From NCBI GenBank assembly GCA_000002435.2, contig CM018790.1: a stretch of DNA of 64,000 bases; one strand, 5' to 3'. Position 1 is the stretch's first letter, and each line of letters begins with the position of its first letter. Below are positions 8,008-56,173 of the stretch, piece after piece. Under the pieces are notes generated by a model that was not told the DNA's origin, did no database searches, and saw only the letters and a program-made list of their open reading frames with translations. The stretch is from Giardia intestinalis. Lineage: Eukaryota. The translations under genes and the position numbers were made by a program.

Positions 8008-9240
8008 ATGACCCTTGTGTTTATCATTCTTGTTCATGCAGCCCTCCTGACAGGCACCCATGGAAATAGGGAGATAGACCTGGAGGGGCAGAGCCCAGAG
8101 CATGCATGCACGCTTCCGATCACCCATCGGTCCCGGGCAGGAGCGTTTACATGCTCAGCGTCAACTTGTGAAACCTGTCTCCAGAGCAATGAAGGATGCT
8201 TTTGGTGCGCAACAACCAACAGTTGTCAAGCACTCAGTGAGGGCGCCGTTCCTGATTCATGTCCTCATGCGGAGTGGCACGATATGATCTATGACGCTCG
8301 CAGCTGCTGTGCCCCTTATGGCAGTAGCTATGCCACCTGTCTGGGAGATGTCCGTGTGTCCTATTGTGCGTGGTGTCCCATCACTACCCAAGGGGGATCT
8401 GCCTGTATTTACAAGTTCACAAAGGAGCTCTCCTCTCGATTTTGCAAGGCGCAGCCAGACGAGCTGATCGAGTGCTCTGCGCTTTCTTCCTGTCGCGACT
8501 GCTCTGCAAGCTCCATGTGTGGTTGGTGCGACCTATCTTCTACCTGTGTCACTATCAACACGCTCTACTCCATGGTCAACGACTCATACGTATGCACCGA
8601 GGTCACTACAAACTGTTGTGGCGACTATACCACGTGCGAAGAGTGCTCAAGTCAGTCTGGCCCATTTACCAAGCAGGCCTGTTTGTGGTGTCCAGACGAT
8701 GGTAAATGCAAGAACTACGATGCAGCGATCTCCTCCTGTTCAAGCACCAACAGGATGGGGACAGGGTTCTGCACGGACAGTTGCTACGTTTCTAGTTCGT
8801 CCTGCCACGCGTGCATGCGGGCAGGAGGATGCATCTGGATAGATTCGTACAGCTACACGAGCGCAGGCAGTCCCGTTGCCCCTGGAGACCTTAAGCCTTT
8901 CTGCATAAAAGGAGGCATCAGCGGCCCAGCCAACCGCGCCTTCTTTTATAACAGTTCGAGCCCAGGCAACTATGCGTTTTCGCCCCACTCATTCTACTAC
9001 TTTAGCTGCACGTTGACGGCATCTGGGCTAATCAACACAATGATCGGGGTTGCCGTTTTCGTTGTCTTGGCCATTATTGCGGTCTTGGTGGCGATTACAT
9101 GCATCAAGCGTTGCAAATATATGGTCCTCCTTCGCGAGGCTCTTGCACAGAACAACGAGGTCCTCGTGGACAGCGATGAAGAGAGTGATGACGCACCTGC
9201 TGTGCTTATGGGCGATGTGCAGGCAGTCCCGTGGGAGTAG
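8008..9240 (+). CDS. Cysteine-rich type I membrane protein with repeated PSI-like modules (high-cysteine membrane protein class); not a VSP
   Basis: Signal peptide MTLVFIILVHAALLTGTHG. Repeated C..C..C....C(F/L)WC modules: CETCLQSNEGCFWCATTNSC, CRDCSASSMCGWCDLSSTC, CEECSSQ..ACLWCPDDGKC, CHACMRAGGCIWI. One C-terminal TM (MIGVAVFVVLAIIAVLVAITCI) and an acidic tail. It lacks the CRGKA terminus. Confidence 0.75.
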   Translation: MTLVFIILVHAALLTGTHGNREIDLEGQSPEHACTLPITHRSRAGAFTCSASTCETCLQSNEGCFWCATTNSCQALSEGAVPDSCPHAEWHDMIYDARSCCAPYGSSYATCLGDVRVSYCAWCPITTQGGSACIYKFTKELSSRFCKAQPDELIECSALSSCRDCSASSMCGWCDLSSTCVTINTLYSMVNDSYVCTEVTTNCCGDYTTCEECSSQSGPFTKQACLWCPDDGKCKNYDAAISSCSSTNRMGTGFCTDSCYVSSSSCHACMRAGGCIWIDSYSYTSAGSPVAPGDLKPFCIKGGISGPANRAFFYNSSSPGNYAFSPHSFYYFSCTLTASGLINTMIGVAVFVVLAIIAVLVAITCIKRCKYMVLLREALAQNNEVLVDSDEESDDAPAVLMGDVQAVPWE

Positions 9241-9333: not shown

Positions 9334-10629
9334 CTAGTTTCCGACTAGGGATCGGTCTATGTTCGTTATGAGACTCCTGATCTGCTCCTTAGACATGTTT
9401 CCTGAGGCTCTGCTGACAGCTATCGGACTAGCAATAGAGTGAATGGGTGGCCTGTTGGATGCGCCCAGCCCGCTGTTATACTGCGAATAGTTGAGCGCGC
9501 TATTGCTAACAGAGCGGTTATTAGCGTTAGATGTAAGGGCGTAAATATGGTCCACATTGTTGGAAACCAGGTCCTCCTCGAGTGCTCTACGCTCCAGGAT
9601 CTGCAGGCGGCTGCGTGCGCGCTCAGCCCGATCGTTTATTTCGCGCATAAGGTCGCTCTTCGCTGCCCTAGACTCCCTCTCTGCATCTTCACATCGTCGC
9701 TTAGAGTCGTAGTTTTCACGTGCGAGAGCGTCCTGGAGTCTCTTGGACGACTCCAGCTCAGAGTCTTTCACGTGTAATAGGGCATCGCGTGCCCTGACCT
9801 CCTGTTCAAGTCTGTAGGCATCAGTGGCCCTCTGTGCGGCAAGCTGGTCGGCGGCGGCAAGCTTGTCTGCGAGCTCCGCCCGCTTCTGGCGCTCAAATGC
9901 AGCTTCGTTGCGGGCGAAGTCGACGTCCTTGCGGAGCGCAAGGTTCTCCTTTTCAAGTTGCCCAAGGCGCAGTCTCAGATCAGCAATCTCACGCTCCGCA
10001 TCGACAAGCCGCGCGCGAAGGGCGTCGTTACCGCGCAACTGAGACTCCATATCTGTGCACTTTCGCTCGAGAGCGGCGTTGCGCTTGCTTAAGTCTGCAA
10101 AGCGATAATCTGCGTCCCGGAGACGGGCCTCTGCGTCATCGCACCTCTGCCGATATGCACCGATGCTCGATGTCAAATCCTGCTTTTCCTTGCGCAGTGA
10201 CTCTGCTAGGCGGCGCTCCTGTTCTATCGCAAAACTCTTATCCGCAAGTTCCTTTTCTAGCAGGGTCTTCCTTGCAGATGTGCGCGCAAGTGCTCCTTCG
10301 AGGGCATCAACACGCGCAGTCCCCTTCAGCGCCTCCATCTTCGCCATCTCGACTTCGTTCTCCTTTTGGCGCATCAGGTCCTCTACCTCGTGGAGACGCT
10401 CCCTTTGCTGCTGGAGCGCGAGGATAGACTCACGGTCGACGAGGTCCTGGCGAAGCTCCAGGTGTTCTAGATCGTTTATGGGCCCCAAGGTTTGCCTGTG
10501 TGACGTCGACGAGTATGCGCTGGCTGAGCGGTAGCCGTTGTCGTGCAGAGACGACAGGCGCATGGACGCGGCAAGAGCCGGGGACTGCTGGGCACGGCTG
10601 TTATATAGATCTCCTGTGCGCAAAGACAT
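9334..10629 (-). CDS. Coiled-coil protein, the shorter paralog of the gene at 16050..18239
   Basis: ORF track gives 9334..10671, but that start is TTG. The first in-frame ATG is codon 15 (MSLRTGDLYN...), which puts the start at 10629. Continuous heptad-rich sequence (ELRQDLVDRESILALQQQRERLHEVEDLMRQKENE...). The C-terminus SPIAVSRASGNMSKEQIRSL matches the paralog's SPLAVSRASERLTKNQMRDL. Confidence 0.7.
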   Translation of the reverse strand: MSLRTGDLYNSRAQQSPALAASMRLSSLHDNGYRSASAYSSTSHRQTLGPINDLEHLELRQDLVDRESILALQQQRERLHEVEDLMRQKENEVEMAKMEALKGTARVDALEGALARTSARKTLLEKELADKSFAIEQERRLAESLRKEKQDLTSSIGAYRQRCDDAEARLRDADYRFADLSKRNAALERKCTDMESQLRGNDALRARLVDAEREIADLRLRLGQLEKENLALRKDVDFARNEAAFERQKRAELADKLAAADQLAAQRATDAYRLEQEVRARDALLHVKDSELESSKRLQDALARENYDSKRRCEDAERESRAAKSDLMREINDRAERARSRLQILERRALEEDLVSNNVDHIYALTSNANNRSVSNSALNYSQYNSGLGASNRPPIHSIASPIAVSRASGNMSKEQIRSLITNIDRSLVGN

Positions 10630-10713
10630 GGCCTTTATCAGTTTTGCCTTTTTTTCACCGAGGTTTTGCAACCATTGGCGGAAAATCTGTACTTTTTAGA
10701 TATTACATGTGCA

Positions 10714-11145
10714 ATGGCCATTGTTGGCCAAATGTACCCCGAACTGAATGCACTGTCCAACGCATATGCGGTCGACATGGCCATTCAGCACGAGTCTGCG
10801 AGGATCGTTGTAGTACGCTTCGGGCTCCCTGACACCGCTGCCTGCGCTGAGATGGACGAGCTTCTTGCCGAAACGATGGTGCGTCTGTCACGGATGGCCA
10901 TCTTTTACACCGTTGACCGAAATGTTGTGTCAGGATTTGATGAGCTGTATGAGCTAGAGGATGATGATTTTGCGCTCCTCTTCTATTATAGAGGAAGACG
11001 GATGCAGTGTGATTTCGGACGATTTGGAAAGTACAAGTTGACCGTTGTCCCACCAAGCACAGACACCTTCATTGACGTGATCAGCGAATTGTACTATAAT
11101 GCGCAGCTGGGACGGTTTAGCTGTACGTCTCCCTGGCAGCCATGA
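10714..11145 (+). CDS. Dim1 / TXNL4-family thioredoxin-like protein (U5 snRNP 15 kDa type)
   Basis: The ORF-track start at 10666 is TTG. In-frame ATGs lie at 10714 (MAIVGQ) and 10732 (MYPELNA..., which aligns with the canonical Dim1 N-terminus MSYMLPHL). The run ARIVVVRFGLPDTAACAEMDELLAETMVRLSRMAIFYTVDRNVVSGFDELYELEDDDFALLFYYRGRRMQCDFG aligns with Dim1's RVVVIRFGHDWDPTCMKMDEVLYSIAEKVKNFAVIYLVDITEVPDFNKMYELYDPCTVMFFFRNKHIMIDLG. Confidence 0.8.
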   Translation: MAIVGQMYPELNALSNAYAVDMAIQHESARIVVVRFGLPDTAACAEMDELLAETMVRLSRMAIFYTVDRNVVSGFDELYELEDDDFALLFYYRGRRMQCDFGRFGKYKLTVVPPSTDTFIDVISELYYNAQLGRFSCTSPWQP

Positions 11146-11169
11146 TCCAAAATTCTCAAAATCAGACTC

Positions 11170-14100
11170 ATGGCGGACAACGAGTACACCCTTATTTCGC
11201 AGGTCTCTGCCACAGAAAACTGCAAAACTATGCTGGTTCAACATAATGGCACCGGGAATTATGCCTTTAAGTACTTTTATACCTCCTGGCCTGTTCCGAA
11301 TGCGCGCCTCAGGAGTTGCATGGACGCTTACCTGCAACTTACATGTCCACATATTATTCGCCTCCAGACATACTCCATAGATACAGCCTTCACCCTTGTC
11401 ACAGACATGACCAATGGGCCGAGCTTGCGTTCTCTCATTATTAAGCGTCGGATTGCCCAGCAATGGTTTACTTCAGTAGAGATTTGGCTGCTTATTACTC
11501 AACTGTTAGAAGGGGTTAAAGCCTACCAGAGCTTTTATGCTCGTGTAGGCGCAGCCGCTGATACGCCGCCCAATCTTTTTCTTTCCCCGTTCTTCATTCT
11601 TATAAGTGATGAAGAGCGGATGAAGCTTCAGATTACAGAGTTCTATCAGACCCTCTTACTTCCCAGTGTCCAACGGCTTTATGCCACGTCGGGTGTTGCG
11701 CCCCCAGAGGTTTCAAAGCACCTGCCCATCAGTGCTTCTGCAGACATATGGATGATCGGTGCAATTCTTTATGAACTACTGACTTTACAACAATTGGATC
11801 TAGATCGATTGATTGAGCTGAACAGTGATGTGGTCACACTGGCCAAAATTGATAATCTGTATCCAATAGATTATGAGCCCTTGGAGCCATACCAATCTGT
11901 AGCAGTATATAGTTTTCTTGATCATGGAAAAGCTTTTCGTTACAGAGAGCTCTATTCACTGCTCTCATGCATGCTCATCATAAACCCCGATAAAAGGCCG
12001 CCTGTAGAGCTCCTTTTAGATTACGCTCTATTGCACACTCCGGCTCTTGTGCAACCAGGATCACCAGGGTCTTCCCTTTCAAGGCCAGAAGATGGACATG
12101 TGCCAAGAGAAAAAGGAGGCAACGATGCAGCTATCCAGAGTTCTATAATAGTCGGGTCTGATGCTCCAGATGCCACTCTACAAAATACTCTTCTTGTTGG
12201 CGTGAAAACGGAGTTGCACAAGGCCGTCGAAGAAAACAATCTTGACAAATTGTTTATGAACCTCCAGTTTGCACGATCTACCGACATAGACGGAAACACC
12301 GCTCTTGTATATGCCATAAAGGCTAACAATGAAGATGCAGTGAAGATCTTGGCACAGGAGGAAATCGGCGTTCTCACAGGAGAGGGATATTCTCCTCTTC
12401 ACTTAGCTCTGCTTCTCAATCACATACAGCTAGCGAAGTATCTAGACGCCTCCTACGATCTGCAGTTTCTTCATGGGGTGGAGCTATGGGTTGATGAGCA
12501 TGGGGTTAGTAACCTAATGCGCTGCGTTTGCGAGCGGAATCTCGTTGGGGTATACTATTATTCAGATAAGCAACAGAAGTTGCAAGATTATGACGGCAAG
12601 ACTGCTCTGATTAAGGCTGTGTTGAATTATAATGAAGGACTCCCTGCCGGCCAGGAAGACGTCAATCTGGCAATTATAAGGCTCTTGCGATTGCACGAGG
12701 CAAGAATACAGGATAAGCGAGGGCGCACAGCACTAATGTACGCTGCAGAGTGTGGGTATCTAGCGGCCATTGACGTCCTCTCCGGCTCTGAGGCGGGAAT
12801 GCGCGACAACGAGGGTCACAACTCCCTTGAAATGGCGTTCTCCAACAGAAAACTCGAGGCTGCACGGCGGATGCTTCTATTGGAGCCGGTTCCCCATTCG
12901 TGCCCCGACCGCCAGGGACTCACAGACCTAATGAAGGCATGCATTGAGGAAGATGCTTTTTCGCTTTTCTGCCATATGACGCAGACCAGAGCCACAGATA
13001 TTAATGGTAATACAGCCCTCATGCACTGCGTTATTCACGACCGTCCAGAATTTATACCGGAACTCTCTGAAGAGTATAGAATGATTAACAGAATCACAGG
13101 GCATAGCGCTATGATGCTAGCAGTCCAGCTGGAGAGGCGTGCATGCTTTGAGGCCCTTATTAAGCATGAGTCCGGGCTTAAGTCCTCTAGCGGAATGACA
13201 GCGTTGATGATGTGTGCATCACAAGGCCTTAGGCCCTATGTCAATCGCCTTTTGAATATCGAGACCAATATCTTCAATGGCACGTGGAACGCAATGACGT
13301 ATGCAATAGCTGCTAACCATCACGAGATTATCGGCCTTTTGGCACCGTTAGAGCTCAACCTCTCAGCAGTGCTTAAGGACTACGACGCCCTCACTGACAC
13401 AGCCGCTGAGATTCAGCAGGAACTGGAGGGTGCTGCGTCTAGTGTACGATCCACAATATCTCTTAACTCAGGATATACCCCGCTTATGTTTGCCGCCCAG
13501 CAGGCGAACATAAACGCTGTGTGGGGACTAAGAGACAAGTATCTTGGTCGCAAAGATCAGCACGGTTTCACAGCTCTGATCTATGCCACTCGTGTCAAGT
13601 CCTTAGAATGCTGCAGGCTTCTGGTTGATGAGCGAGACATATTGTGCAATCAAGGCCTTTCTGCTTGGTTCTACGCCTATCAGAACGGATATCATGAGCC
13701 ACTGGACATAATCCGTCCCACGATAAAATATGCTAACACAGAACATCGGCTGACAGATCTTCATATGCTCATCCTACGGAATGAAGTGCCGCTGAGTTCG
13801 GTTCAACCAGGAGGTACTGTGTCTTCATCCTTGACAGCAGACAGCACCGTGCGTTCGAGTTCTGCAAAGTCTTCACTGCACCATAGAGACCCTCACGAGG
13901 GCCTTCAGTCAACTTATACACCTAACCGCTTCAGACGCAGTCAAGTAACCACCTCAGCCATTTTGTGTCCTAAGGAGTTATCAAACACTAGCAATATGAT
14001 ATCCTTAGAGTCCTCTCTTGTGCTTCCAGAAGACCCACCAACTAAGACGCAGCCAGATTATCTACAAGATGTTTCCACTCTTCTTTATCTGACAAAGCTG

Positions 14101-16026
14101 TATACCAAGTCTGGTGAAACAGCCCTTATGCTAGCGGCAAAGAGCTACAGAGGTAAGATGGACAAGAATCTACTCGCTCTCGAGGCAGGAATGCGGGATT
14201 CCTATGGAAGATTGGCATCGTGCATTGCCATAGAGCGTGGAAACACAGAGTTTCTCACTGAGGTTCTTCCGTATGAACGGGATGCTCTGATTGCAGATGG
14301 ATTCACAGACCTAATGCTTTCTATTCTTGAGGATGATTATGTTGCCCTGATGCACCACCTTAAGAATCCAGAACAGCAATGCGGTCAAGTCGTCATGTCA
14401 GCTTACACTGCGCTTAACATTTGCATATACTGTGGCAAGAATACGCTTATACCGCTTTTTCTGCCCTACGAAGCCGACATAGAAATCCACGACAAGCTTA
14501 AGCCGTTGGACCTCGCCTATGCGACCCGCAACGTCGAGGCCATACTTCTCTTAATGCCTTACACATACACGGGAGGGCGACTGGCACTCTCCCAGTGCCT
14601 TTCCAACCTCATTCGAGCAGCCATGAAGGAGCAGCGTCTTTCAGATACAAGAGCATATGACCTTCTAGCAGCATTTCACAGCTCAAACTATCGCCAGCTC
14701 AAGGAGGCTCTTCAGAGTAACGACATTCAAAGCATGAAGGCGTTCAAGGAGCTGGCAGATAGTTTCCAGGCCGTTGCTTTGAATATTGAATACCTTGTTC
14801 TCCCAGACGCTGTCTTTGATGACAATGGAAACTCTCAACTACACATCGCTGCCCTGGCTGCAGATACACGTCTTGCAGCTGCGTTTGTACATCTGCATAG
14901 TTTGCGCAACAAAAAGGGAGAAACAGCGCTCATGCTCGCCGCTCGAAGCGGTTCTGAAGCCGTGGTCGACATCCTTCTAAACTACGAGGCGGAGATGCAG
15001 GACAACAACAAAATGACGGCAACGGAACATAGCATTGTGAGCGGCACATTCCACAAAGTTCTGAACCTGTATACACGGGAGAAGGCCTTTCTCGTTAACG
15101 AGTGTGAGCTTTCTCCTCTCATGCTTGCTGTTTTGGAAGGAGACATTAAAACTGTGAGCGCCGGCCTCAAGTATGCAAAGCTGCGCACATCGTCTGGAAT
15201 GACTGCTTTGCATATGGCTATCTACCTCCGGCAGCAAGCACACGCCAATCTCCTCAAGATGGAGAAAGGAATCCTCACATACGATGGCTTGTCACCGTGG
15301 TTCTTAGCTAAAGAGAAGCGCATGGCACATGATTTCTTAGAACCTGACTCCACGGTAGATGCATTGGGCTGTACAGAGCTCCATCGGGCTGCAATCCAGA
15401 ACAATTCGCAACAAGTAAGGAACTACTTACCTCTTGCGCAACAATATAATGCAAATGGTCGCACCTCTCTTATGGAAGCGGCTCTTGCCGGTTCACTAGA
15501 CGCCGCGAAGATACTCGTCGACCATGAACACGGAATGCGGGCAAGGGCCCGTTTCGTTGTGGGCAATAGCTACTTTGATGAAGCCACTGCATTAATGTTT
15601 GCTGCCGCTGCAGGGCATGAGAGCATTGTACGGCTTCTGATCCCCTACGAGTGTAAGATGCACGAGTCGTGCAACGGAAAGACGGCGCTGATGGCTGCCG
15701 CGGCAGCGGGTCACCTTTCCACCCTTAAACTCCTGATTGATAGCGAGGGAGGGCTTACAGGCCAAAATGGCTGGACCGCGCTGATGTCTGTAGTCTCTAA
15801 GCAGTACGTTGATTGCGTCGCTCCCCTGTTGGAGAAGGAGGCAGGAATGCGGGATTCTCAGGGAAACTGCGCTCTTGTGACAGCAATAAGCAACGGGAAC
15901 ATGGACATCGTACGGGTGTTAGCTCCAATTGAGGCGAAGATAATGGGGAAATCTACTCTCATGCGCATCTGGAAGAGCAACATAGCATACGACGAGATAG
16001 TTCGGTATGTTAACAAGCTACTATGA
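11170..16026 (+). CDS. Ankyrin-repeat protein (Giardia protein 21.1 type) with an N-terminal NEK-like pseudokinase domain
   Basis: 1618 aa. The N-terminal ~250 aa have a kinase fold signature (AFK lysine, LVTDM hinge, APPEV, DIWMIGAILYELLT). The HRD catalytic loop is replaced by ADTPPNLFLSP and DFG by EFY, so it is predicted inactive. More than 25 ankyrin repeats follow (GNTALVYAIKANNEDAVKILA, GRTALMYAAECGYLAAIDVL, GKTALMAAAAAGHLSTLKLL...). Confidence 0.85.
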   Translation: MADNEYTLISQVSATENCKTMLVQHNGTGNYAFKYFYTSWPVPNARLRSCMDAYLQLTCPHIIRLQTYSIDTAFTLVTDMTNGPSLRSLIIKRRIAQQWFTSVEIWLLITQLLEGVKAYQSFYARVGAAADTPPNLFLSPFFILISDEERMKLQITEFYQTLLLPSVQRLYATSGVAPPEVSKHLPISASADIWMIGAILYELLTLQQLDLDRLIELNSDVVTLAKIDNLYPIDYEPLEPYQSVAVYSFLDHGKAFRYRELYSLLSCMLIINPDKRPPVELLLDYALLHTPALVQPGSPGSSLSRPEDGHVPREKGGNDAAIQSSIIVGSDAPDATLQNTLLVGVKTELHKAVEENNLDKLFMNLQFARSTDIDGNTALVYAIKANNEDAVKILAQEEIGVLTGEGYSPLHLALLLNHIQLAKYLDASYDLQFLHGVELWVDEHGVSNLMRCVCERNLVGVYYYSDKQQKLQDYDGKTALIKAVLNYNEGLPAGQEDVNLAIIRLLRLHEARIQDKRGRTALMYAAECGYLAAIDVLSGSEAGMRDNEGHNSLEMAFSNRKLEAARRMLLLEPVPHSCPDRQGLTDLMKACIEEDAFSLFCHMTQTRATDINGNTALMHCVIHDRPEFIPELSEEYRMINRITGHSAMMLAVQLERRACFEALIKHESGLKSSSGMTALMMCASQGLRPYVNRLLNIETNIFNGTWNAMTYAIAANHHEIIGLLAPLELNLSAVLKDYDALTDTAAEIQQELEGAASSVRSTISLNSGYTPLMFAAQQANINAVWGLRDKYLGRKDQHGFTALIYATRVKSLECCRLLVDERDILCNQGLSAWFYAYQNGYHEPLDIIRPTIKYANTEHRLTDLHMLILRNEVPLSSVQPGGTVSSSLTADSTVRSSSAKSSLHHRDPHEGLQSTYTPNRFRRSQVTTSAILCPKELSNTSNMISLESSLVLPEDPPTKTQPDYLQDVSTLLYLTKLYTKSGETALMLAAKSYRGKMDKNLLALEAGMRDSYGRLASCIAIERGNTEFLTEVLPYERDALIADGFTDLMLSILEDDYVALMHHLKNPEQQCGQVVMSAYTALNICIYCGKNTLIPLFLPYEADIEIHDKLKPLDLAYATRNVEAILLLMPYTYTGGRLALSQCLSNLIRAAMKEQRLSDTRAYDLLAAFHSSNYRQLKEALQSNDIQSMKAFKELADSFQAVALNIEYLVLPDAVFDDNGNSQLHIAALAADTRLAAAFVHLHSLRNKKGETALMLAARSGSEAVVDILLNYEAEMQDNNKMTATEHSIVSGTFHKVLNLYTREKAFLVNECELSPLMLAVLEGDIKTVSAGLKYAKLRTSSGMTALHMAIYLRQQAHANLLKMEKGILTYDGLSPWFLAKEKRMAHDFLEPDSTVDALGCTELHRAAIQNNSQQVRNYLPLAQQYNANGRTSLMEAALAGSLDAAKILVDHEHGMRARARFVVGNSYFDEATALMFAAAAGHESIVRLLIPYECKMHESCNGKTALMAAAAAGHLSTLKLLIDSEGGLTGQNGWTALMSVVSKQYVDCVAPLLEKEAGMRDSQGNCALVTAISNGNMDIVRVLAPIEAKIMGKSTLMRIWKSNIAYDEIVRYVNKLL

Positions 16027-16049
16027 GGTGACAACCATTTACATTTGAG

Positions 16050-18239
16050 CTAATACCGATACTCTCCAGAACCCACCGAAGCCATCAGATCTCTCATCTG
16101 GTTCTTTGTAAGTCTCTCACTCGCACGGGAAACTGCCAAGGGACTTGCTGTGATGGACATGGCCGGAACCGATGGCGATCGCGGGTGACTGCGGTGGGAG
16201 GCGGAAGTATCCTGTGGCTGCGCATGAATAGAGAAGCTCACAGAGCGATCAATCAGCCCTCTGTTCTCCATTGCTGTCGCTATATCTCTATCCGCGCGAT
16301 CCATTACATATGTACTGCTAGGTGGAGGCGCACAGGATCGATCAAACCCTCCATATCCATAGCCATTTCCTCTGCTAGAGCTTCCAGACAGCCTATTTGC
16401 CTCGCGTGCTGCATCCTCTATTTGATTGCTAATTGCATCTTCCATAACTGCACGGTTTTCTAGGAGCTGGATTCTTCGTCGGGCTCGCTCTGCCCGCTCA
16501 TTCCGCTCCCGTTCAAGTGCTGCCTCAGTTTCCCTCAAAATACGGAGCTTCTCCTCAGCTTCTTTCCGTGTATTCTGCGACTCTATAGCAAGCTGGTCGA
16601 CTACCCGTCTCGTGCTCTCTATTTCTGCTTCCTTGCAGCGTATATTTCCTTGCAGCCTTTGCATATCACGTTCAAGCTGCATATTTCGACGCTCTCGCTC
16701 GTCCATGGACTCTGTCATGATTACAATGCGAGACTTTAGATTGGCCACCTCGTTTATCCGCTGCTCCAGCTCTCCCTCGCATTGCTTCAGGGAGCTAAGT
16801 AAACTATTGAATTCTCTGCACTTAGTATCATGAACGACCTTTAGATCTGTGAGGTTGTCATAGAGGTCCGACACTCTTCTGTTGAGGCCCTCAATGTCTC
16901 CTTCCATTAAGTTTTTGTCCGCTTGAAGGGATGCCACTTGACCTTGTAGTGCTGTGCACTCGCTGCTCTTGCGCATCATGCCGTCCTTTATTTCTCCGTT
17001 GATTTTCTGCAACTCGCAGCAGGTGTCGGAAAGGGTGCGCAGGTCTGTCCTCAGCTCTTTGATTATTTCAGCCATTGTTTTCTTGCCAGTTGCTGAGAGA
17101 AATGCCCACTTATTACGTATCTGCTTCGACGGAGGCCCGGCCCCGCTTATGGACTTGACGAAATTGCACTCCAGATAAATAGCAGACTTAAGAGCGAGAA
17201 GAGTGATGGCATCCTGGCTTCGCATGCTGTTGTACGTTGTGTTATCGATTAGACTAGCTATCTCGGCTATATCATCGGGGCGCAACTTGTTGACAGAACT
17301 ATTGATATTGTCATTGTCGCTTGAAATTTTGTGTCCATACCCTCTTCTGCTTTTCGTCAGCTCCAGAAGTCTACCAACAAAAACAGCTGCCTTACATATG
17401 CTGCGCAACTTCGAGACAGCCTTTGGCGTGCCCTCAAGGATTCGTCGCATACGAAGAGTCTCGTCCAAGAGTAGCTCAAAATGACCAGTGGTGAAGTCCT
17501 TTTGCCGTCGTAGCTCAGCTACCACTCTGTCCAGCTGGAGCACTTTCTTCGCAAGCTCTTTTGTTGCTGTCAGCGACTGGTTCGCTATTTGCTCATTAAG
17601 CAGAACGGCCCTGCTCAGCATCTCATTCTCCTTACGCACAACAGTGAGCTGTGTATCTAAGCCTGACGCTAGCTGCTCTGCTTTCTCTGTGCGGTCCTGA
17701 AGCACCTTAGTGTTCTCAGTAGCAGCATCAACGCGCCGCTGAAGGTCACTCGACAGCTGCATCTGACCGGAAAGTTGCTGCTGGAGATCAGCAGCTTGCT
17801 TATTCGCGGAAAAAAGCGCGGCTCTGAGAGTTTGTATCTCTTTCTCCTGCTCCTCAGCACGAGTGAGCGAAGCCATGTGCTCTGCACGCAAGATATTTGC
17901 ATGTTCCAGCAATCTCTTAACCTCCATGTCCTTCTCCTGTACTTCCCTTTCCAAAACAACCTTGCGTGCAGAGGTTCGTGAGAGTGCATTTTCTAGTGCA
18001 TCCACCCGTGCAGACTCCTTTAGCTGCTGCATTCGCAGGTTTTCCAAGTCTATCTCCTTCTGCACCGCTGCCGCTTTGACTTCATTCAGGAGCACACGCT
18101 GTTGCTCGAGGGCCAGTATTGATTCCTTATCGATCAGCTCCTGGCGCAGCTCCATGTGTTCTGTGTCAGCTCTCGACGAGCCTTGAACCTGCGTCATATG
18201 GAGCGATGTGTCCATGGGTACCATGCGAGACGTGCGCAT
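16050..18239 (-). CDS. Coiled-coil protein (729 aa), the longer paralog of 9334..10629
   Basis: ATG start. The N-terminus HMELRQELIDKESILALEQQRVLLNEV...ARVDALENALSRTSARKVVLEREV parallels the paralog's HLELRQDLVDRESILALQQQRERLHEV...ARVDALEGALARTSARKTLLEKEL. It carries an extra, apparently non-coiled central segment of ~150 aa. Confidence 0.75.
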   Translation of the reverse strand: MRTSRMVPMDTSLHMTQVQGSSRADTEHMELRQELIDKESILALEQQRVLLNEVKAAAVQKEIDLENLRMQQLKESARVDALENALSRTSARKVVLEREVQEKDMEVKRLLEHANILRAEHMASLTRAEEQEKEIQTLRAALFSANKQAADLQQQLSGQMQLSSDLQRRVDAATENTKVLQDRTEKAEQLASGLDTQLTVVRKENEMLSRAVLLNEQIANQSLTATKELAKKVLQLDRVVAELRRQKDFTTGHFELLLDETLRMRRILEGTPKAVSKLRSICKAAVFVGRLLELTKSRRGYGHKISSDNDNINSSVNKLRPDDIAEIASLIDNTTYNSMRSQDAITLLALKSAIYLECNFVKSISGAGPPSKQIRNKWAFLSATGKKTMAEIIKELRTDLRTLSDTCCELQKINGEIKDGMMRKSSECTALQGQVASLQADKNLMEGDIEGLNRRVSDLYDNLTDLKVVHDTKCREFNSLLSSLKQCEGELEQRINEVANLKSRIVIMTESMDERERRNMQLERDMQRLQGNIRCKEAEIESTRRVVDQLAIESQNTRKEAEEKLRILRETEAALERERNERAERARRRIQLLENRAVMEDAISNQIEDAAREANRLSGSSSRGNGYGYGGFDRSCAPPPSSTYVMDRADRDIATAMENRGLIDRSVSFSIHAQPQDTSASHRSHPRSPSVPAMSITASPLAVSRASERLTKNQMRDLMASVGSGEYRY

Positions 18240-18386
18240 TTAGAAGGAAGGCAAAAGTTAGCAGACTTTATTAAAAGTTGTCTATGTGCTCAATAAAATA
18301 TTAGCTCACGGCTACGGAGGGATTGTTGAAAAACTTCGCAGCCCTTAGCAGTATACCAAAGCTTTATTAAATTGTTCGTTGAGCAG

Positions 18387-19496
18387 ATGCCTCTTCTGTC
18401 TGTCAATAGTTGGTTTGGAACCAAGTCTCCCTTCTTCACTCAGAATATGCGGCACTGCGTGCCTAACCCAGGGGTTATCCTCATAATGTCGCTTTTGTTT
18501 ACCGGATCAATAATTTTCCTAATAATCAGCGCGATAGCTTTTTCGTTCAATTCTGCACAAGCATATGGGATAGCACACTACTCTACACCTTCATCTGGAG
18601 CATCTTCTCAAACAGAGCCAGTGACTGTTACTCTCGAACGATTTAATGTGGAAAAGCCCCTTTACGTATACTACCATCTACAAGACTTCCATCAGAACGT
18701 TCGGTTCTATGTCTCTAGCTTTAGTAGGAAGCAGCTCCAATCAGACAGCTTTAAAGCCGCTGGTCTGAACAAGGACTGCAATAAAGGGGGGACGGTAGTA
18801 GATGAGCCATGCGGCCTTATTTATCAATCCTTATTCAACGATACCTTGGCTAGTACCACAACAAACGAAGTAACCTTTTATATCACCAGCACAGACACCT
18901 CCGCAAATCCGTCTCAACCTATAAAGGTTCAGTTGCCTATTAATACAACGGGGATTGCCTGGAAGGAGGACATCAAGAGCACTAGAATGTATGGAAAGGC
19001 ATTCCAAGCTCTTCCAAATAGTGAAGCTGTTGCAGTATGGATGCGAACAGCACCCCTAAGTACATTTGACAAGCTTTACGGACGGTTCACTGCAGAGCAA
19101 CTCAAGGCCCTCGTCACAGACTCTTACACAGCGGAAACCATATATGATGCTTCGAAGGCTGGCGGTGTAACCGTGGAGTTTTCGGTGACAAATAACTTTC
19201 CATACGGGAAGAAGTCCATTGTGCTGCAGCAAATGACCGTTTTCGGAGGATACTATGAAACAAGGAACTTAGCAATCTTATCTATAATCTTAGGGTGTGT
19301 CATGTTTATCTGCGGACTTACTCTTCTCATCATCTTCCTCGAACGCGGACCGCGGAGTGCCAAGTATAAGACAGTCTTAGAACAGTATCCTATAGTTACC
19401 AATAGCAGCATTCTCCTGTCTGAGCTCGAAAGGATGGGGGACGAGAAGGTCCGCAGAACCATACGCCAGGTAAAGGCCGAAATGGGACTCAAGTGA
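18387..19496 (+). CDS. CDC50/LEM3 (TMEM30) family protein, beta-subunit of P4-ATPase lipid flippases
   Basis: The ORF-track start at 18372 is TTG and the first ATG is at 18387 (MPLLSV...). N-terminal TM (ILIMSLLFTGSIIFLIISAIAF). Family motif PLYVYYHLQDFHQNVRFYVSS (PxYVYYxLxNFYQNHRRYV in other members). C-terminal TM (LAILSIILGCVMFICGLTLLIIFL). Confidence 0.8.
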   Translation: MPLLSVNSWFGTKSPFFTQNMRHCVPNPGVILIMSLLFTGSIIFLIISAIAFSFNSAQAYGIAHYSTPSSGASSQTEPVTVTLERFNVEKPLYVYYHLQDFHQNVRFYVSSFSRKQLQSDSFKAAGLNKDCNKGGTVVDEPCGLIYQSLFNDTLASTTTNEVTFYITSTDTSANPSQPIKVQLPINTTGIAWKEDIKSTRMYGKAFQALPNSEAVAVWMRTAPLSTFDKLYGRFTAEQLKALVTDSYTAETIYDASKAGGVTVEFSVTNNFPYGKKSIVLQQMTVFGGYYETRNLAILSIILGCVMFICGLTLLIIFLERGPRSAKYKTVLEQYPIVTNSSILLSELERMGDEKVRRTIRQVKAEMGLK

Positions 19497-19525: not shown

Positions 19526-21220
19526 TCACACGCTTTTTCCATCGCAACTGAAGATGTCATCAACGCGCAGGATCATACAAGCATTTTCTATAGCGGCCTT
19601 GAGGACCTGCAGCTTTGTGCTCAGTGGGTCCCAGATGCCCTGCTCCTTGCAGTTGACGAGGAGCCCTGTGACCCCATCGACACCCAGCTGACAGTTCGGG
19701 TCACTGGTGTGGGCAGCCTTGAGCTCGGTGATGGTCCTTATTATATTCCCACCGCAGTTCTGCAGCAGCGTCCGTGGGATCACCTCCAGGGATTTGGCGA
19801 CTGCCTTAATGACAAGCTGAGGCTTTCCGACAAGGGTGTCTGCATACTGAGAGAGTGCCGTCGACAAGTGAGCCTCAAAACAGCCTCCGCCAATGACCAG
19901 GCGCGGGTCAAGGATAATATTCCTGCACACGTGCATGGCGTCCTGAATGTTCCGCTCTATCTCCAGCAGGGTGCTCTTGGAGGCGCCTCGAAGCACAATG
20001 GTACAGGCACTGGCCTTACCCCCAGATTGGTGGATGAAGGAAAAGAACTCGTCACCGATCTTCTGGAGCTCATAGAGGCCTGCGTATGTCCCCACATCAC
20101 TTTCTTGAAGCTCCTCCACGCGACTGACAATGGTGGCACCGGAAACTGCCGCAAGGCGCACGTTGTCTGTCTTCCTGACGCGCCTGAGGACTGTCACGCC
20201 GTGCTGGACAAACATATGAGTCGCCTGATCCGCCACACCCTTCTCGGTGATGACCAGGTCGGGCTTGAAGCTGAGGATCTTCTCCACGTGGGTCCTAATG
20301 TAGTCTTCTTCGACCTTGAGTATGTCTCCTAGATCAGACTTCCCTTGGAACAGCTCTACGTTCATCATTGATTGGGCCTTCTTGTACTCTAGAGGGCAAT
20401 CCAGAAGAAGTATGCGGGGATTCTTGATGTACTTCCTCATATCGGGGTGAATGACATCCTTATTAAGCACTACGCCATCGATGACGCAGCAGTCCTCCAC
20501 AGTCGCACCAGGGATCTTCTCTATGCGGCAAAACCTCTTAATATCAATGTCAACTGAAGCACCAAGCTCTGCTTCATCCCCTTTTGAACGCGCATCCTTA
20601 GTGACACCCACTAGACCCTTGCGCACCTCCGCTCCACGTCCTCTAGCGACTATGCTGACCGCCTCGAGCGCAAGGTTGCACATGAGATCCATCCATCTAC
20701 TGACAAACTTCGTGGATAGCGAGTTCTTTAAAACTGTCATAATAGGGCCTGCCGCCTCAGACTTCAGACCCAGGATCTCTATGCCCTTTATATTTATTTC
20801 AAATGAAGATCTTTCTGCCTCACTCAAAAGAAAGTCCAAGGCTTTCTGGTATCCCTGCGTAATGAGAATAGGATGTATCCCACACTTGAGAAGGGGCTCT
20901 GCCATGGCGATCACCTCCCCTGCCAGGATGACAACGCTTGTGGTGCCGTCTCCGACTTGCTCCTCCTGGGCCCGTGAAACCTCCAGCATGGCCTTGGCTG
21001 CGGGGTGTGCCACGTCGAGCTCGCGCAGGATGGCGTTCCCGTCGTTTGTCATGACCACGCTCCCCATTGAGTCCAGGATCATCTTGAGCATGGAGCGTGG
21101 GCCCATCGTTGTCCTGATGACGTCTGCGACTGTCTTACTTGCCTTGATGTTGTTCATGCGGGCCATTTCTCGGCGCTCGCTCTCGGTGCCTTGGCTCAGG
21201 ACATAGACTTGGGGCTGCAT
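19526..21220 (-). CDS. CCT3: T-complex protein 1 (CCT/TRiC) subunit gamma
   Basis: 564 aa. [35 protein letters not shown] aligns with human CCT3 [35 protein letters not shown]. Other matches: [58 protein letters not shown], and the C-terminal ILRVDDIFS. Confidence 0.9.
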   Translation of the reverse strand: [564 protein letters not shown]

Positions 21221-21299: not shown

Positions 21300-22700
21300 A
21301 TGGGGATCTCACATAGACGGGAACGAGAGCCCTCTGCTGTCCTTCTTCTTGGGCCCGGCATATGAGGATGTGAGTCTGCTCATTAAAAAATAGAAACAAT
21401 ATTGCTGTAGTTTTGTCTCTTGGCGATGTCGAGGACCGTGGTACCAGGTGGAAAGCATCGATCTTTGCAGGTAGTTCTCATATCCCTCTCCCTTTCCATA
21501 AGTAGCTTGGCACACTCTGTTTTGTAATGATACACTGCCTTCATAAGAATGGTCTAGCCAGTGGTACTCTGGATGCCAGCTTTTTTGTCCATCAATAGCT
21601 TAACACATTCTGAGTGATTATTATGCGCTGCATACATGAGCGCAGTTTGGCCATGTCAATTTTTCATGCCACCTTCGTGCTTTATTAGCAATGTAACCAC
21701 TTCTGTGTGCCCATGCACCGCTGCTAACATCAACGCTGTCTCTTCGTATCCATTCCATCCACTTATGTCAAAATACTTCGCTGTCTTTCCCTTTCGGATA
21801 GAAATAAAACGATTCACAGCCTCCATATCCCGCATTCTACAGCCTGCATGAGCCTGGTGACGCCTTTATTATCTGTCGGATCAAGGAGCTCCACAATATC
21901 TGTGTGCTTCACTAACAAAGCAAGCATCATCGTGGTTTTACCATTGCTATTCACCCCATATTTACCAGACAAATACTCCAATGCAGTGCTCTTGGAAGCA
22001 GCGCTTGTGAGCAGAGTATATGAGAAATCCTGTATAGCTGACTCCTAAAATCCTTTCTAGAGTCATTTATCTCTCCTGATTTGAGGCTAAGGCTGTTCTC
22101 AAGAGGCTCGATCTCCGATTAGCATTGTCTAGAGCAGCCTCTAGTGCCGTGACTCAAGCCCGTAGTCTTCCTTTTAGAACACCAGATTCTTGAAGCAGCC
22201 TACCAAGCTCCCTGGCTGTTGGTCTTTGAGTGGGGTCTAGAACAAGCGCTTTCTTGAGGATACTCCTTATGAGGTCGTCTTCAACTGCACTCAGGCTGAG
22301 CCTTTGCCCATCAACGAAGACATTCCTCGGGTGCTGCTCCCAGGAGATTAGGCATTTGAAAGTGAAGAGCTCATAGGCGGTAGCACCGAAGACCCGACGT
22401 CGAACGTAGGGCCGGTCTCGTCCCTGAGGTGGATCTCGGGAGCCATGTATGCTTGGTTCCCAAAATGGCACTCCCATTGTGCAGGACATCCTTGCAGAGC
22501 CCGAAGTCCGCAAGAGCTGAGCCTGCCATTTCTGCTGACATCGACTTTGTCGGGGTCGTGAAGGTAGGTAAGGATGATGGCGATCTGCTCCATGATGGAG
22601 AGCACTGTATCGGTAGGGTTACCGGTTCTTGCTCAATCGGCAATCACATCTTGAGGCACCGATCTCAGCGGTCCATGATGATGAAGATGGAGTGAGCGTC
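21300..22700 (-). pseudogene. Decayed NEK-kinase/ankyrin-repeat gene (kinase part at 22150-22700, ankyrin part at 21300-22050), with several frameshifts and stops
   Basis: Minus-strand fragments in different frames: kinase C-lobe pieces (NQAYMAPEIHLRDE; RRVFGATAYELFTFK; NVFVDGQRL..AVEDDLIRSILKKALVLDPTQRPTARELGRLL) and ankyrin pieces (GKTTMMLALLVKHTDIVELL; GYEETALMLAAVHGHTEVVTLLIKHEGGM; GQTALMYAAHNNHSECVKLLMDKKAGIQ). In-frame stops separate the pieces. Confidence 0.55.
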
Positions 22701-23046
22701 TCTGAGCACCCGGTAGTGCCTAATGACATCTAGGTGTGAGCGTCTGGAAATGGTGGCCAGCGCGACCCAGTGGCCTCCGTGAGCTTCCCACTCTGAGTCT
22801 TGGATAGCCACCTATCACATGGACAGTACCAAAGCTGCCCACATCAAGCACCCCTCCTCGCATCGATGCAGCTCGTCGGCGGGCACAGGATATCGAGTGC
22901 ACCGTCCCCAGCCATGACGGTGTCAACGGCGCTGTGCAGAGCACGCTCGGGGGCAGGGAAGCGGCCACCCCTGCTCCCGGTTGCTGGCTGGCTGGCGAAG
23001 TACATAAGGCGCACCCGCTTGTCGGCAGCTGCACCACTAGTGACGC

Positions 23047-23053
23047 GTTTACT
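23047..23053 (-). terminator. Giardia polyadenylation signal AGTAAAC (AGTRAAY class), 13 nt past the VSP stop codon
   Basis: Minus-strand sequence after the stop reads TAG ATGTACTTAGGT AGTAAAC GCG. Seen directly; position is +/-1. Confidence 0.6.
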
Positions 23054-23065
23054 ACCTAAGTACAT

Positions 23066-24277
23066 CTACGCCTTGCCCCTGCAGATGAACCACCAGCAGA
23101 GGAAGCCCACGAGGCCCCCGACGACAACGATGACAGCGACGGAGATCCCCGCGATGGCGCCGGTAGAAAGGCCGCTCTTGTTCGTGCTACCGCCATCTTT
23201 CATGAGGTAGCAGAGAACGGGGCCTTGATTATTAGATGGGGGAGCGCAGCTCGCGCAGTTAGCGACGCCCTGAATGTTATTGCTTGTCTCTGTACACAGC
23301 TTGCATGCTTTACTGGCGTCCAAGTAACGGCCAGGTGGACAGGCGCTGCACTTATTGGGCTGATTAGCTTCGGTGCATGTCGCACAAGTGGAGTCGCATA
23401 ATGGACACATGTTCGAGACAGCTGTCAAGCCATTCGCACACGTTTGGCATTTTCCATCCCCAGTGGGCGTTGTGCAGATGCTCTTCCCGGGGAGCCTCGT
23501 CGTCTGGTAGCACCCGCCCTCCTGGATGAAGTATCCGGCGGCGCAGACCGTGCAGGCACCGTTAGCGGCAGTGGTGCAGAACCGAGTCCTGGCCGCATTG
23601 CTTGTGCAGACGCCATTGAGCGGCACGTTGTTCCCCTTGCACTTCGAGCAGTACTTGGTACCTCCAATTGTTAGGCCGCACGTCTCGCACTCCGGGCCCT
23701 CCACGCATTGCTCCACGCACGTGCCGTCTGTAGGATTGCTCTCGTCGGCGTACCTCAGCATCTTCCCGGCGGGACAGGCCGTGCACTTGGAAGCGCCGGC
23801 CCCGCTGCACTCCGCACAGGAGGGGTCGCAGGGCGCGCACGTTTGTCCGGATAGATACGTTCCGACAGGGCAGGCATCTAAGCATGCCTTCTTCGTCGGG
23901 GTCAGATGCTTTCCTGGTTCACATTCTTCGCAAGTCTGCTTGTCCGGGGAGCACGTCTGGCAGTTCACGATCGGGCAGTCGGCCTGCGGCGTGCACTGCG
24001 TCCCGTCGTCGTTGGGGTCGAAGCCAGGGCTACACGTCTCGCACCTTGTGTTGTCGCCAGAGACGCACTGGGCGCAGTTCTGGACTCCGCAGTCGGACGC
24101 GGGGTTCTTGGTGCACTTCTTCGTGGTGGGGTTGAGGGTGTAGCCTGAGCCGCACGTCTTGCACTGCTGGGGGTTGCTTTCCTCGCAGACATCACAGCCC
24201 TCGACCTCGCACGGCGCGGTCTTTTCGTTGTGCTTTGCCAGCACGGTTGCACAAACTAGGAGAAATCCTACCAACAT
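23066..24277 (-). CDS. Variant-specific surface protein (VSP)
   Basis: The ORF track extends to 24334 but begins with GTG. The first ATG (codon 20, at 24277) gives the signal peptide MLVGFLLVCATVLA. About 12% Cys with many CXXC motifs (CDVCEE, CAQC, CQTC, CAEC, CETC, CATC), a GGC/TM region and the invariant tail ...GLVGFLCWWFICRGKA*. Confidence 0.9.
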   Translation of the reverse strand: MLVGFLLVCATVLAKHNEKTAPCEVEGCDVCEESNPQQCKTCGSGYTLNPTTKKCTKNPASDCGVQNCAQCVSGDNTRCETCSPGFDPNDDGTQCTPQADCPIVNCQTCSPDKQTCEECEPGKHLTPTKKACLDACPVGTYLSGQTCAPCDPSCAECSGAGASKCTACPAGKMLRYADESNPTDGTCVEQCVEGPECETCGLTIGGTKYCSKCKGNNVPLNGVCTSNAARTRFCTTAANGACTVCAAGYFIQEGGCYQTTRLPGKSICTTPTGDGKCQTCANGLTAVSNMCPLCDSTCATCTEANQPNKCSACPPGRYLDASKACKLCTETSNNIQGVANCASCAPPSNNQGPVLCYLMKDGGSTNKSGLSTGAIAGISVAVIVVVGGLVGFLCWWFICRGKA

Positions 24278-24862
24278 TAGCCGGAGTTCGTATGCCACTG
24301 CTCTTCTGTCAGGCCGGTGCGTTGCCGCGAGCACTGAGAGACAGCCGCTCTTGCTCTCTTGATCGGTTGGACTGGAGAGGGATAAGATAATAGCACACCC
24401 ACCGGAGGCCGGCTGATGGCACGGTTCCCCCTGGCTTCGATAGGAACAGGACCAGTGAGGAGTAGACTCAGACCGTGCCTCTCTTGTGGAATGATTGATT
24501 GGGGTGCACTCTTGTACATTGCTGTCACTGTATCACTGGGCCCACCTGCAGGTGCGCTCAGAGGCCTCACGGGTAAGCTGCGCCCACTTCTCGACCGTCC
24601 GGAGACGATGGCTGGTTGTGGATAACATACTAAAAGCTCCTCTCCATCGATGCATCCAGAGCTCAGTGTCGTCCCGGTCGGCATACTCTGTCGGGGCACT
24701 CCGCGTCGGCCTCCAGGGTTCGGCCTGCTCAGGGCCATACGAGCCGCTAATGTGCCCTCCTTGGCCTGCCATCAGCAGCTCGCACTAGGCGCCTTACTCA
24801 GGCAGTAGCCAAGGCCACTCCAAAGGGTGGCTCCGGATTGCAGTTAAAATCAGCGGCGGCTG

Positions 24863-27030: not shown

Positions 27031-27049
27031 ACCCGTCCAGGATCCGAAG

Positions 27050-29950: not shown

Positions 29951-30023
29951 GATGAGTGGATTACGCCGGGTGGTTTACTCAAGCTGCAGCTACCAAGATT
30001 CTAGTTAAAGCTCCTACCTTAAG

Positions 30024-56010: not shown

Positions 56011-56173
56011 ACGAGGATTTGTAAAATAAACTATTTTAAATTCAATTCTGTAAAATAAATTTTTTATTTTTTGACTCTAGGCTGAAGCTGCCAAGGTGCG
56101 TGATCCCTCGGTGATGCCTTGAGTGTTGCTTCACCAAAGAACAACCACACGGCACAGCCGAATCTCTCATTTT

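Follow-up and report, generated by a model that had tools for sequence, protein, structure and literature searches.

Two disc-associated coiled-coil proteins of Giardia intestinalis belong to one Fornicata family, probably through an ancient local duplication followed by loss of the centre of one copy

A 64,000-nucleotide stretch of DNA (hereafter the window) from Giardia intestinalis assemblage A (WB), taken from contig CM018790.1 of assembly GCA_000002435.2, carries two genes for coiled-coil proteins, GL50803_15499 and GL50803_17412, which lie on the same strand with 5.4 kb between them. Their products are the disc-associated proteins (DAPs) DAP15499 and DAP17412, referred to here as the short and the long paralog. 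A prediction made earlier from the sequence letters alone (the original prediction) had placed both genes on the minus strand and read them as a locally duplicated pair, and the open reading frames (ORFs) confirm the strand and the coordinates. The two genes are true paralogs, homologous beyond their coiled-coil composition, and the similarity is carried by conserved blocks at the two ends of the proteins. The genes and their parts are as follows (all coordinates are positions in the window, and residues are those of the proteins).

9334..10629, minus strand: short paralog GL50803_15499 (DAP15499), ORF of 431 aa, exact match to XP_001708676
10246..10482, minus strand: N block of the short paralog, residues 50-128, D.EHLELRQDLVDRESILALQQQR...ARVDALEGALARTSARK, 58% identical to the long paralog
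9553..9744, minus strand: C block of the short paralog, residues 296-359, RLQDALARE...ERAERARSRLQILERRALEED, 44% identical to the long paralog
9340..9447, minus strand: C-terminal tail of the short paralog, residues 395-430, ASPIAVSRASGNMSKEQIRSLITNIDRSLV, from alignments
16050..18239, minus strand: long paralog GL50803_17412 (DAP17412), ORF of 729 aa, exact match to the older gene model
17940..18176, minus strand: N block of the long paralog, residues 22-100
16878..17687, minus strand: central segment of the long paralog, residues 185-454, coiled-coil flanks around a non-heptad hinge of ~120 aa, from the alignment gap map and a heptad scan
17352..17411, minus strand: conserved basic amphipathic helix KLRSICKAAVFVGRLLELTK in the central segment, residues 277-296
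16419..16610, minus strand: C block of the long paralog, residues 544-607
16056..16163, minus strand: C-terminal tail of the long paralog, residues 693-728, ASPLAVSRASERLTKNQMRDLMASV

The newer model of GL50803_17412 (XP_001708672.2) starts at Met8, nucleotide 18218, and gives a protein of 721 aa.

The pairwise alignment proposed in the original prediction gave significant homology. With composition correction, BLASTP aligned the N-terminal ends of the two proteins at 35% identity over 218 aa (E=1e-23) and the C-terminal ends at 28% identity over 205 aligned columns with 57 gaps (E=4e-9). As a control the long protein was shuffled, 300 times globally and 300 times within local windows of 20 residues. 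The best shuffle reached 26-29 bits against 90.5 bits for the real protein in the corrected comparison, and 43-50 bits against 112 bits in the uncorrected one. Identity is concentrated in the N block (79 aa), the C block (64 aa) and the C-terminal tail, while identity falls to only 18-19% in the coiled coil that connects the blocks. The N- and C-terminal motifs that had been quoted as shared are indeed present in both genes, and the tail, which is not coiled, reads ASP[IL]AVSRAS..K.Q[IM]R[SD]L.

The two proteins are built on the same plan with different middles. The short paralog has a disordered Ser-rich N-terminal end, a continuous coiled coil of ~290 aa with heptad periodicity at approximately residues 68-361 in a heptad scan, a Ser/Asn-rich linker and the conserved tail. 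The long paralog has two long coiled-coil rods with a central hinge between them, a longer disordered linker and the same tail. AlphaFold placed helices in the long paralog at residues 23-245, 251-295 and 389-615, and short helices in its tail at 700-706 and 712-721; the predicted local distance difference test score (pLDDT) was 64 for the full protein and below 50 at residues 268-391 and 618-699. Compared with the short paralog, the long one has an excess of ~262 central residues (within 185-454) that have no counterpart, plus 64 residues in the C-terminal linker. Of the central residues, ~120 (approximately 258-375) lack heptad periodicity or are of low confidence in AlphaFold. The centre contained no confident fold: when its 165 residues were modelled alone, from an alignment of 8 sequences, the pLDDT was 52 and only short helices were obtained.

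These results modify what had been said of the long copy, namely that it carries an extra non-coiled insert of ~150 aa which might be a cargo or interaction module. The extra material is real, but it is not a 150-aa insert, being divided between the centre and the linker and non-heptad or poorly predicted over only ~120 residues. The module itself finds no support. Since the centre has no confident fold and is the least constrained part of the protein (see below), there is no evidence for a folded cargo module, and the models suggest that this segment is better described as a flexible hinge with one conserved helix.

To find further members, as the original prediction had recommended, a family profile was used in an exhaustive HMMER search against 1.84 billion representative proteins. 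This gave just 23 matches at E<=1e-3, the top ones being all family members. From G. intestinalis itself only two types appeared, and the window holds only two members. Relatives were found in Giardia muris, where GMRT_11479 is of the long type and GMRT_15515, whose cluster was matched, is of the short type (59% identical to GL50803_15499). Strong matches were also obtained for SS50377_23153 of Spironucleus salmonicida and for KIPB_013051, a fragment from Kipferlia bialata which holds the C block and tail, and metagenomic sequences contributed four members (designated P0004, P0055, P0061 and P0064). As far as these searches reach, the family appears restricted to Fornicata, i.e., Giardia, Spironucleus, Kipferlia and uncultured relatives. 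One ORF in the window, 25026..26138, matched the profile weakly (15 bits) and was rejected as a kinase fragment.

The end blocks define the family. The N block, D.E[HNQ][LMI]EL[RK].[ED]L[IVL][DN][KR]ES[ILMV]L followed by ...AL[EGN].AL.R.S.[RK]K, was found in both window genes, both G. muris genes, both genes of a metagenomic lineage described below (L004), P0004, the Spironucleus protein, P0061 and P0064; its E, E and S residues are invariant in all family members. A search with a profile of the N block returned solely the fragment P0064. The C block, RR[VL].D.LA.E ... ER.ERAE[RK]A[RK].R...LE.R, is present in both window genes and its conservation reaches the Kipferlia fragment. The family form of the tail, ASP[LIM].V[ST]RAS...[ST]K.[QE][IM][RK].L, occurs in both window genes, the Kipferlia fragment and P0061; a tail of the short-paralog kind is also found in G. 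muris, in metagenomic relatives and in KIPB_013051. In G. muris GMRT_11479 the tail has degenerated, and the Spironucleus model, which is apparently truncated, lacks it.

Two of the metagenomic contigs that carry family members, L002 (European Nucleotide Archive, ENA; 37% GC) and L004 (JGI 3300010163; 60% GC), are diplomonad-like and differ greatly in base composition. Their source organisms appear to be uncultured Giardia relatives that could help to date the duplication. Two other public sequences look like assembly or frameshift artefacts. In P0003, on a 950-nt Logan contig, the N terminus of an unrelated membrane protein (PF15795) is fused to a stretch identical to the last 172 aa of 15499, and in P0057 the sequence leaves the frame after the first 142 aa of 17412.

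No known domain or structure accounts for the family. A Pfam scan of 16 family members gave no family above threshold. The best match, to the ATG16 coiled coil (PF08614), scored 21.8 and 16.8 bits against a gathering threshold of 33.7 and was set aside as a generic coiled-coil match. A search of the PDB with the whole-family profile returned generic coiled coils only (tropomyosin, crescentin) and no structural relative, and with the N-block profile it returned nothing better than E=0.13 and no Spc110 or CDK5RAP2 chain. Several labels attached to these proteins were also rejected. Automatic annotation calls some orthologs SMC proteins, with which they have only a long coiled coil in common: neither the PF02463 head nor the PF06470 hinge was detected at E<=0.1 in the 16 members or at E<=0.01 in the window proteins, and the name is therefore an artefact of coiled-coil matches. 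The DUF390 label given to 15499 (PMC4931700) has no PF04094 match at E<=0.1 in current Pfam, and an 'Sm' label was not reproduced by the current Pfam scan. Likewise, the START label given to 15499 (PMC5450421) has no PF01852 match in the Pfam scans. In that publication the same label, 'START domain containing protein', stands three rows above on GL50803_5800, and its appearance on 15499 is possibly a table slip.

The age of the duplication was addressed with neighbour-joining trees with bootstrap, built from 242-349 columns of the coiled-coil alignment. Bootstrap support was 100% for the clade of short genes from G. intestinalis, G. muris and L004, and 99-100% for that of long genes from G. 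intestinalis and G. muris, which the L004 long copy joins at 45-93%. Both G. muris and the L004 lineage have one short and one long copy. As the short and long clades each span three lineages, the duplication predates their divergence; on these trees it is ancient, having preceded both the separation of G. intestinalis from G. muris and that of the L004 lineage. The saturation of synonymous sites between the paralogs agrees with such an age.

The trees and motifs also bear on how the two copies came to differ in size. The original prediction had left open domain gain or loss, and the size difference is real and best read as a loss. The central helix, KLR.I..A..FV.RL, and its flanking segments occur in all long forms, including G. 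muris GMRT_11479, P0055, P0004 (which tends to branch with the short clade) and Spironucleus SS50377_23153. Since the central motif is present in long relatives beyond the Giardia long clade, it would be the short copy that lost its centre rather than the long copy that gained an insert. Read most simply, the alignments point to a long ancestor and to a deletion in the short lineage that removed the hinge and the coil next to it, ~270 central residues.

The ratio of nonsynonymous to synonymous substitution rates (dN/dS) was measured on assemblage A versus B orthologs in place of the paralog pair, because dS between the paralogs is saturated. It was 0.019 for GL50803_15499 (95.4% protein identity) and 0.051 for GL50803_17412 (85.3%); two neighbouring genes, described below, gave 0.040 (NEK) and 0.052 (CDC50). 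Within the long paralog the centre had a dN/dS of 0.109, the highest in the gene, versus 0.023 for rod 2. By this measure both copies are functional genes under strong purifying selection, and the short one is unusually constrained.

The genes that lie between the paralogs and beside them provide the basis for comparing gene order.

10732..11145, plus strand: Dim1 (U5 small nuclear ribonucleoprotein thioredoxin-like protein), PF02966, E=2.7e-27, head-to-head with the short paralog
11170..16026, plus strand: GL50803_11775, 1618 aa, NEK-family kinase-like domain and ankyrin repeats, 'flagellar NEK kinase GK301'
18372..19496, plus strand: CDC50/LEM3 gene, PF03381, E=2.9e-33, head-to-head with the long paralog, synteny anchor
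19526..21220, minus strand: CCT chaperonin subunit, synteny anchor of the long paralog

Both intervening genes had been correctly named in the original prediction. The mechanical ORF of Dim1 begins at 10666, and its likely ATG at 10732 is placed from the G. muris ortholog. GL50803_11775 had been called a pseudokinase-ankyrin gene, which agrees with its Pfam matches (Ank_2, E=1.8e-96; Pkinase weak, E=1.3e-8, 35 bits); its catalytic motifs are degenerate, and the 'ITE' aligned at the DFG position fits a pseudokinase.

In assemblage B the gene order is the same (CCT, CDC50, long paralog, NEK, Dim1, short paralog). In G. muris the paralogs are 105 kb (~57 genes) apart, on the same chromosome and in the same order and strand, and two micro-blocks have been kept, CCT-CDC50-long and Dim1-short, the latter with a 28-bp divergent spacer. 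In L004, CDC50 lies between the short-type gene (419 aa) and the long-type gene (P0055), which share a strand and are separated by 6 kb. Because the copies are close together in two of the three lineages, a local duplication with later separation in G. muris is favoured, the ancestral adjacency being inferred from these gene orders. The earlier claim of a local duplication that diverged in situ thus stands as far as same-strand neighbours in assemblages A and B and in L004 are concerned, but the event is ancient and the copies lie far apart in G. muris.

Alternatively, the duplication may have been dispersed (non-local), with the adjacency in G. intestinalis arising secondarily by rearrangement or loss of intervening DNA. 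In G. muris the two genes, 105 kb apart, each sit in a conserved micro-block of their own, and the gene most similar to the window NEK has its place on the opposite side of the short copy. Rearrangement of the surrounding gene order between species and the different relative order of the short and long types in L004 could likewise be expected from such a history. However, same-strand proximity of less than 10 kb in two of three lineages, together with a third in which chromosome, order and strand are all the same, is more economically accounted for by one local duplication and a separation in G. muris, and we regard a dispersed origin as unlikely.

Two observations concern the neighbourhood of the short paralog. 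The Dim1 gene and the short paralog, head-to-head, are ~100 bp apart in G. intestinalis (10629..10732) and 28 bp apart in G. muris (L005 9972..10001), meaning that a splicing-factor gene and a cytoskeletal gene have a tiny divergent promoter region in common, which is conserved. The closest G. muris match to GL50803_11775 is a gene for a 1495-aa ankyrin protein (L005 15519..20006), 49% identical over the C-terminal 649 aa, which lies less than 5 kb from the G. muris short paralog on the opposite side. The linkage of the NEK/ankyrin gene and the short paralog, whose products co-localise (see below), may be conserved across species.

The original prediction had suggested a cytoskeletal pair of the disc or axoneme type and a comparison with published localisations, and the two agree, both proteins being already catalogued as disc-associated. 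GL50803_15499 tagged with GFP was found at all basal bodies, the lateral crest of the disc and the cytoplasmic posteriolateral axonemes (PMC4931700). It has been described as a dense-band protein which also marks the disc margin, in a study that calls the composition of the microtubule nucleation zones of the disc undefined (bioRxiv 10.1101/361105). In addition, a 3.4-fold higher level has been reported for it in in-vivo foci, and it labels the cyst wall (PMC5450421). A 2026 localisation atlas lists DAP15499 and DAP17412 as hypothetical proteins and gives 'ventral disc' for DAP17412 (PMC13322205 supplement). On this literature (PMC13322205; bioRxiv 10.1101/361105 for 15499) both genes count as DAPs in the sense of a tagged protein at the ventral disc or lateral crest. 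The same atlas places the NEK protein GL50803_11775 at the basal bodies and the caudal and posteriolateral axonemes (PMC13322205 supplement), and its reported sites overlap the DAP15499 pattern at the basal bodies and posteriolateral axonemes. The Gene Ontology (GO) identifier that the atlas assigns to DAP17412, GO:0097952, occurs nowhere else and is absent from the paper's own GO list (PMC13322205).

As such, the genes and their cytoskeletal nature were already known. The main texts of the literature searched make no mention of GL50803_17412 or DAP17412, and the texts searched contain no statement that DAP15499 and DAP17412 are related, share end blocks, or have relatives in Spironucleus or Kipferlia. 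The kinship and the wider family look unreported, and what is added here is the paralogy, the Fornicata-wide family with its end motifs and the direction of the size change, a loss.

DAPs of the 'hypothetical coiled-coil' type have reportedly been catalogued by the Dawson laboratory, in Hagen 2011, Nosala 2018 and 2020 and the Hagen 2026 atlas. Both genes are named there and, like many DAPs, they have no Pfam domain; in the texts searched they are treated as two unrelated 'hypothetical proteins', whereas here they form one family. The SF-assemblin and giardin-type proteins (beta-giardin, delta-giardin, SALP-1) are, like them, cytoskeletal coiled-coil proteins of the Giardia ventral disc. However, no family member has an SF-assemblin Pfam match, and the family proteins are much longer and have specific end motifs.

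Taking these lines of evidence together, we consider it likely that DAP15499 and DAP17412 are an ancient Fornicata coiled-coil paralog pair, which arose by local duplication followed by loss in the short copy, and whose members serve as structural struts or tethers within microtubule organelles. The kinship of the two proteins, how old their duplication is, which copy changed in size, the purifying selection and the localisations are demonstrated here or in the literature. The ancestral protein would have been of the long type. After a short N-terminal motif, a conserved N block would have opened the coiled coil of rod 1; the central hinge, with its basic amphipathic helix, would have connected this to rod 2, and beyond rod 2 there would have been the C block (conserved and charged), a linker rich in Ser/Pro and disordered, and the conserved tail. 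Local duplication would have occurred before the known Giardia lineages split, and one copy would then have lost the hinge and flanking coil, leaving a single uninterrupted rod of ~290 residues, or ~43 nm if it is a continuous helix; the long copy would have kept two rods of ~225 residues each joined by the hinge. We infer that both proteins form elongated coiled-coil dimers, in which the N block at one end and the C block and tail at the other would be docking ends kept by both paralogs, and the poorly conserved, fast-evolving rod would serve as a spacer, longer or shorter and more or less flexible depending on the copy. A short and rigid copy would be fitted to the basal bodies, the dense bands, the margin of the disc and the posteriolateral axonemes, a long and hinged one to the disc. 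The difference in rod and hinge plausibly underlies the different sub-localisations of the paralogs.

Several points weigh against this account. The localisation of DAP17412 is known just as 'ventral disc', under a GO identifier missing from the list of its source paper. For dimerisation, docking of the end blocks and a loss-of-function phenotype, the literature searched offers only localisation data. The positions of P0004, P0055 and the Spironucleus protein are weakly supported (14-93%) in the neighbour-joining coiled-coil tree, so the argument for loss rather than gain rests mainly on the shared central motif. Finally, 105 kb separate the copies in G. muris, and the relative order of the short and long types is not the same in G. 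intestinalis and L004.

A more far-reaching version, which we consider distinctly unlikely, is that this is a Fornicata-wide family of tethers at basal bodies and microtubule-organising centres, whose N block and C-terminal tail would dock at nucleating sites (basal bodies, disc dense bands and disc margin) and whose rigid and hinged spacers, of different length in the two Giardia copies, possibly as heterodimers, would help to template the disc. If true, a pre-existing flagellar-apparatus protein would have been recruited into the attachment organelle of Giardia.

We judge it improbable, to a still greater degree, that the family is the diplomonad counterpart of the gamma-tubulin-complex tethers (Spc110, CDK5RAP2, pericentrin), in which case the N block would bind or activate a nucleator, the coil would space and the tail would target. 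The layout is alike: Spc110, CDK5RAP2/centrosomin and pericentrin also combine an N-terminal block, a poorly conserved coil as spacer and a C-terminal targeting element. DAP15499 is likewise at sites of microtubule nucleation (all basal bodies, dense bands and disc margin), and no CM1 protein turned up that might fill this role, although the Giardia genome was not searched for one. However, no sequence relationship was detectable: neither PF07989 (CM1) nor a Spc110 or CDK5RAP2 chain was matched at permissive thresholds. DAP15499 is also on axonemes and the cyst wall, and DAP17412 is listed as ventral disc only, with no basal-body or dense-band site recorded. The CM1 consensus is presumably unlike the invariant E..E and ES residues of the family. 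The resemblance is best taken as a functional analogy only.

A recent tandem duplication within G. intestinalis, with a new insert acquired later in the centre of the long copy, is highly improbable. The closeness of the two genes on one strand and the low constraint on the centre of the long copy would suit it, but G. muris and L004 already hold both types with 99-100% clade support, the paralogs are saturated at synonymous sites and ~35% identical overall, and the central motif is found in Spironucleus and other long forms beyond the Giardia long clade. Merely generic coiled-coil resemblance (heptad, low-complexity) between genes that are not homologs, a prospect raised by the original prediction itself, is scarcely credible: the rods between the blocks are indeed dissimilar and both proteins weakly match generic coiled-coil models (ATG16 coil, tropomyosin), but with correction no shuffle exceeded 29 bits against 90.5, the N block is 58% identical and carries non-heptad signature residues, the non-coiled tail ASP[IL]AVSRAS is common to both, the blocks recur in G. 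muris orthologs defined by synteny, and the exhaustive profile search gave few generic coiled-coil proteins, with weak scores only.

An ancient paralog pair of struts or tethers, the reading we prefer, reveals no new element at this locus, as both genes had been annotated, localised with GFP and named. The gain is in annotation, two 'hypothetical' DAPs becoming one family with defined end motifs. Relatives occur in free-living and parasitic fornicates without a ventral disc, which suggests that the disc was partly built from an older coiled-coil protein of the basal bodies or axonemes. DAP15499 stands out in being both unusually conserved (95%, dN/dS 0.019) and located at the disc microtubule nucleation zones. 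The N block, the C-terminal tail and the central hinge provide handles for experiments on how DAPs reach their sites in the cell.

Other features of the window were noted in passing. On the other side of the short paralog and tail-to-tail with it, positions 8008..9240 (plus strand) encode a type I membrane protein of 410 aa that is rich in cysteine and matches PSI (plexin repeat; E=4.6e-8); it is kept in assemblage B (415 aa). Positions 22000..30000 form a GC-rich island (57-61% GC versus 45-50% elsewhere). It contains a VSP gene (23066..24334, minus strand; PF03302, E=1.5e-119) and an apparent NEK kinase and ankyrin gene in the form of separate ORFs with non-ATG starts (25059..26141, Pkinase; 26407..27030, Ank), which may be a pseudogene or a frameshifted gene. 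The sole Rfam match in the window is the Giardia U4 spliceosomal small nuclear RNA, full length, at 56077..56171 on the plus strand (RF02493, 126 bits).

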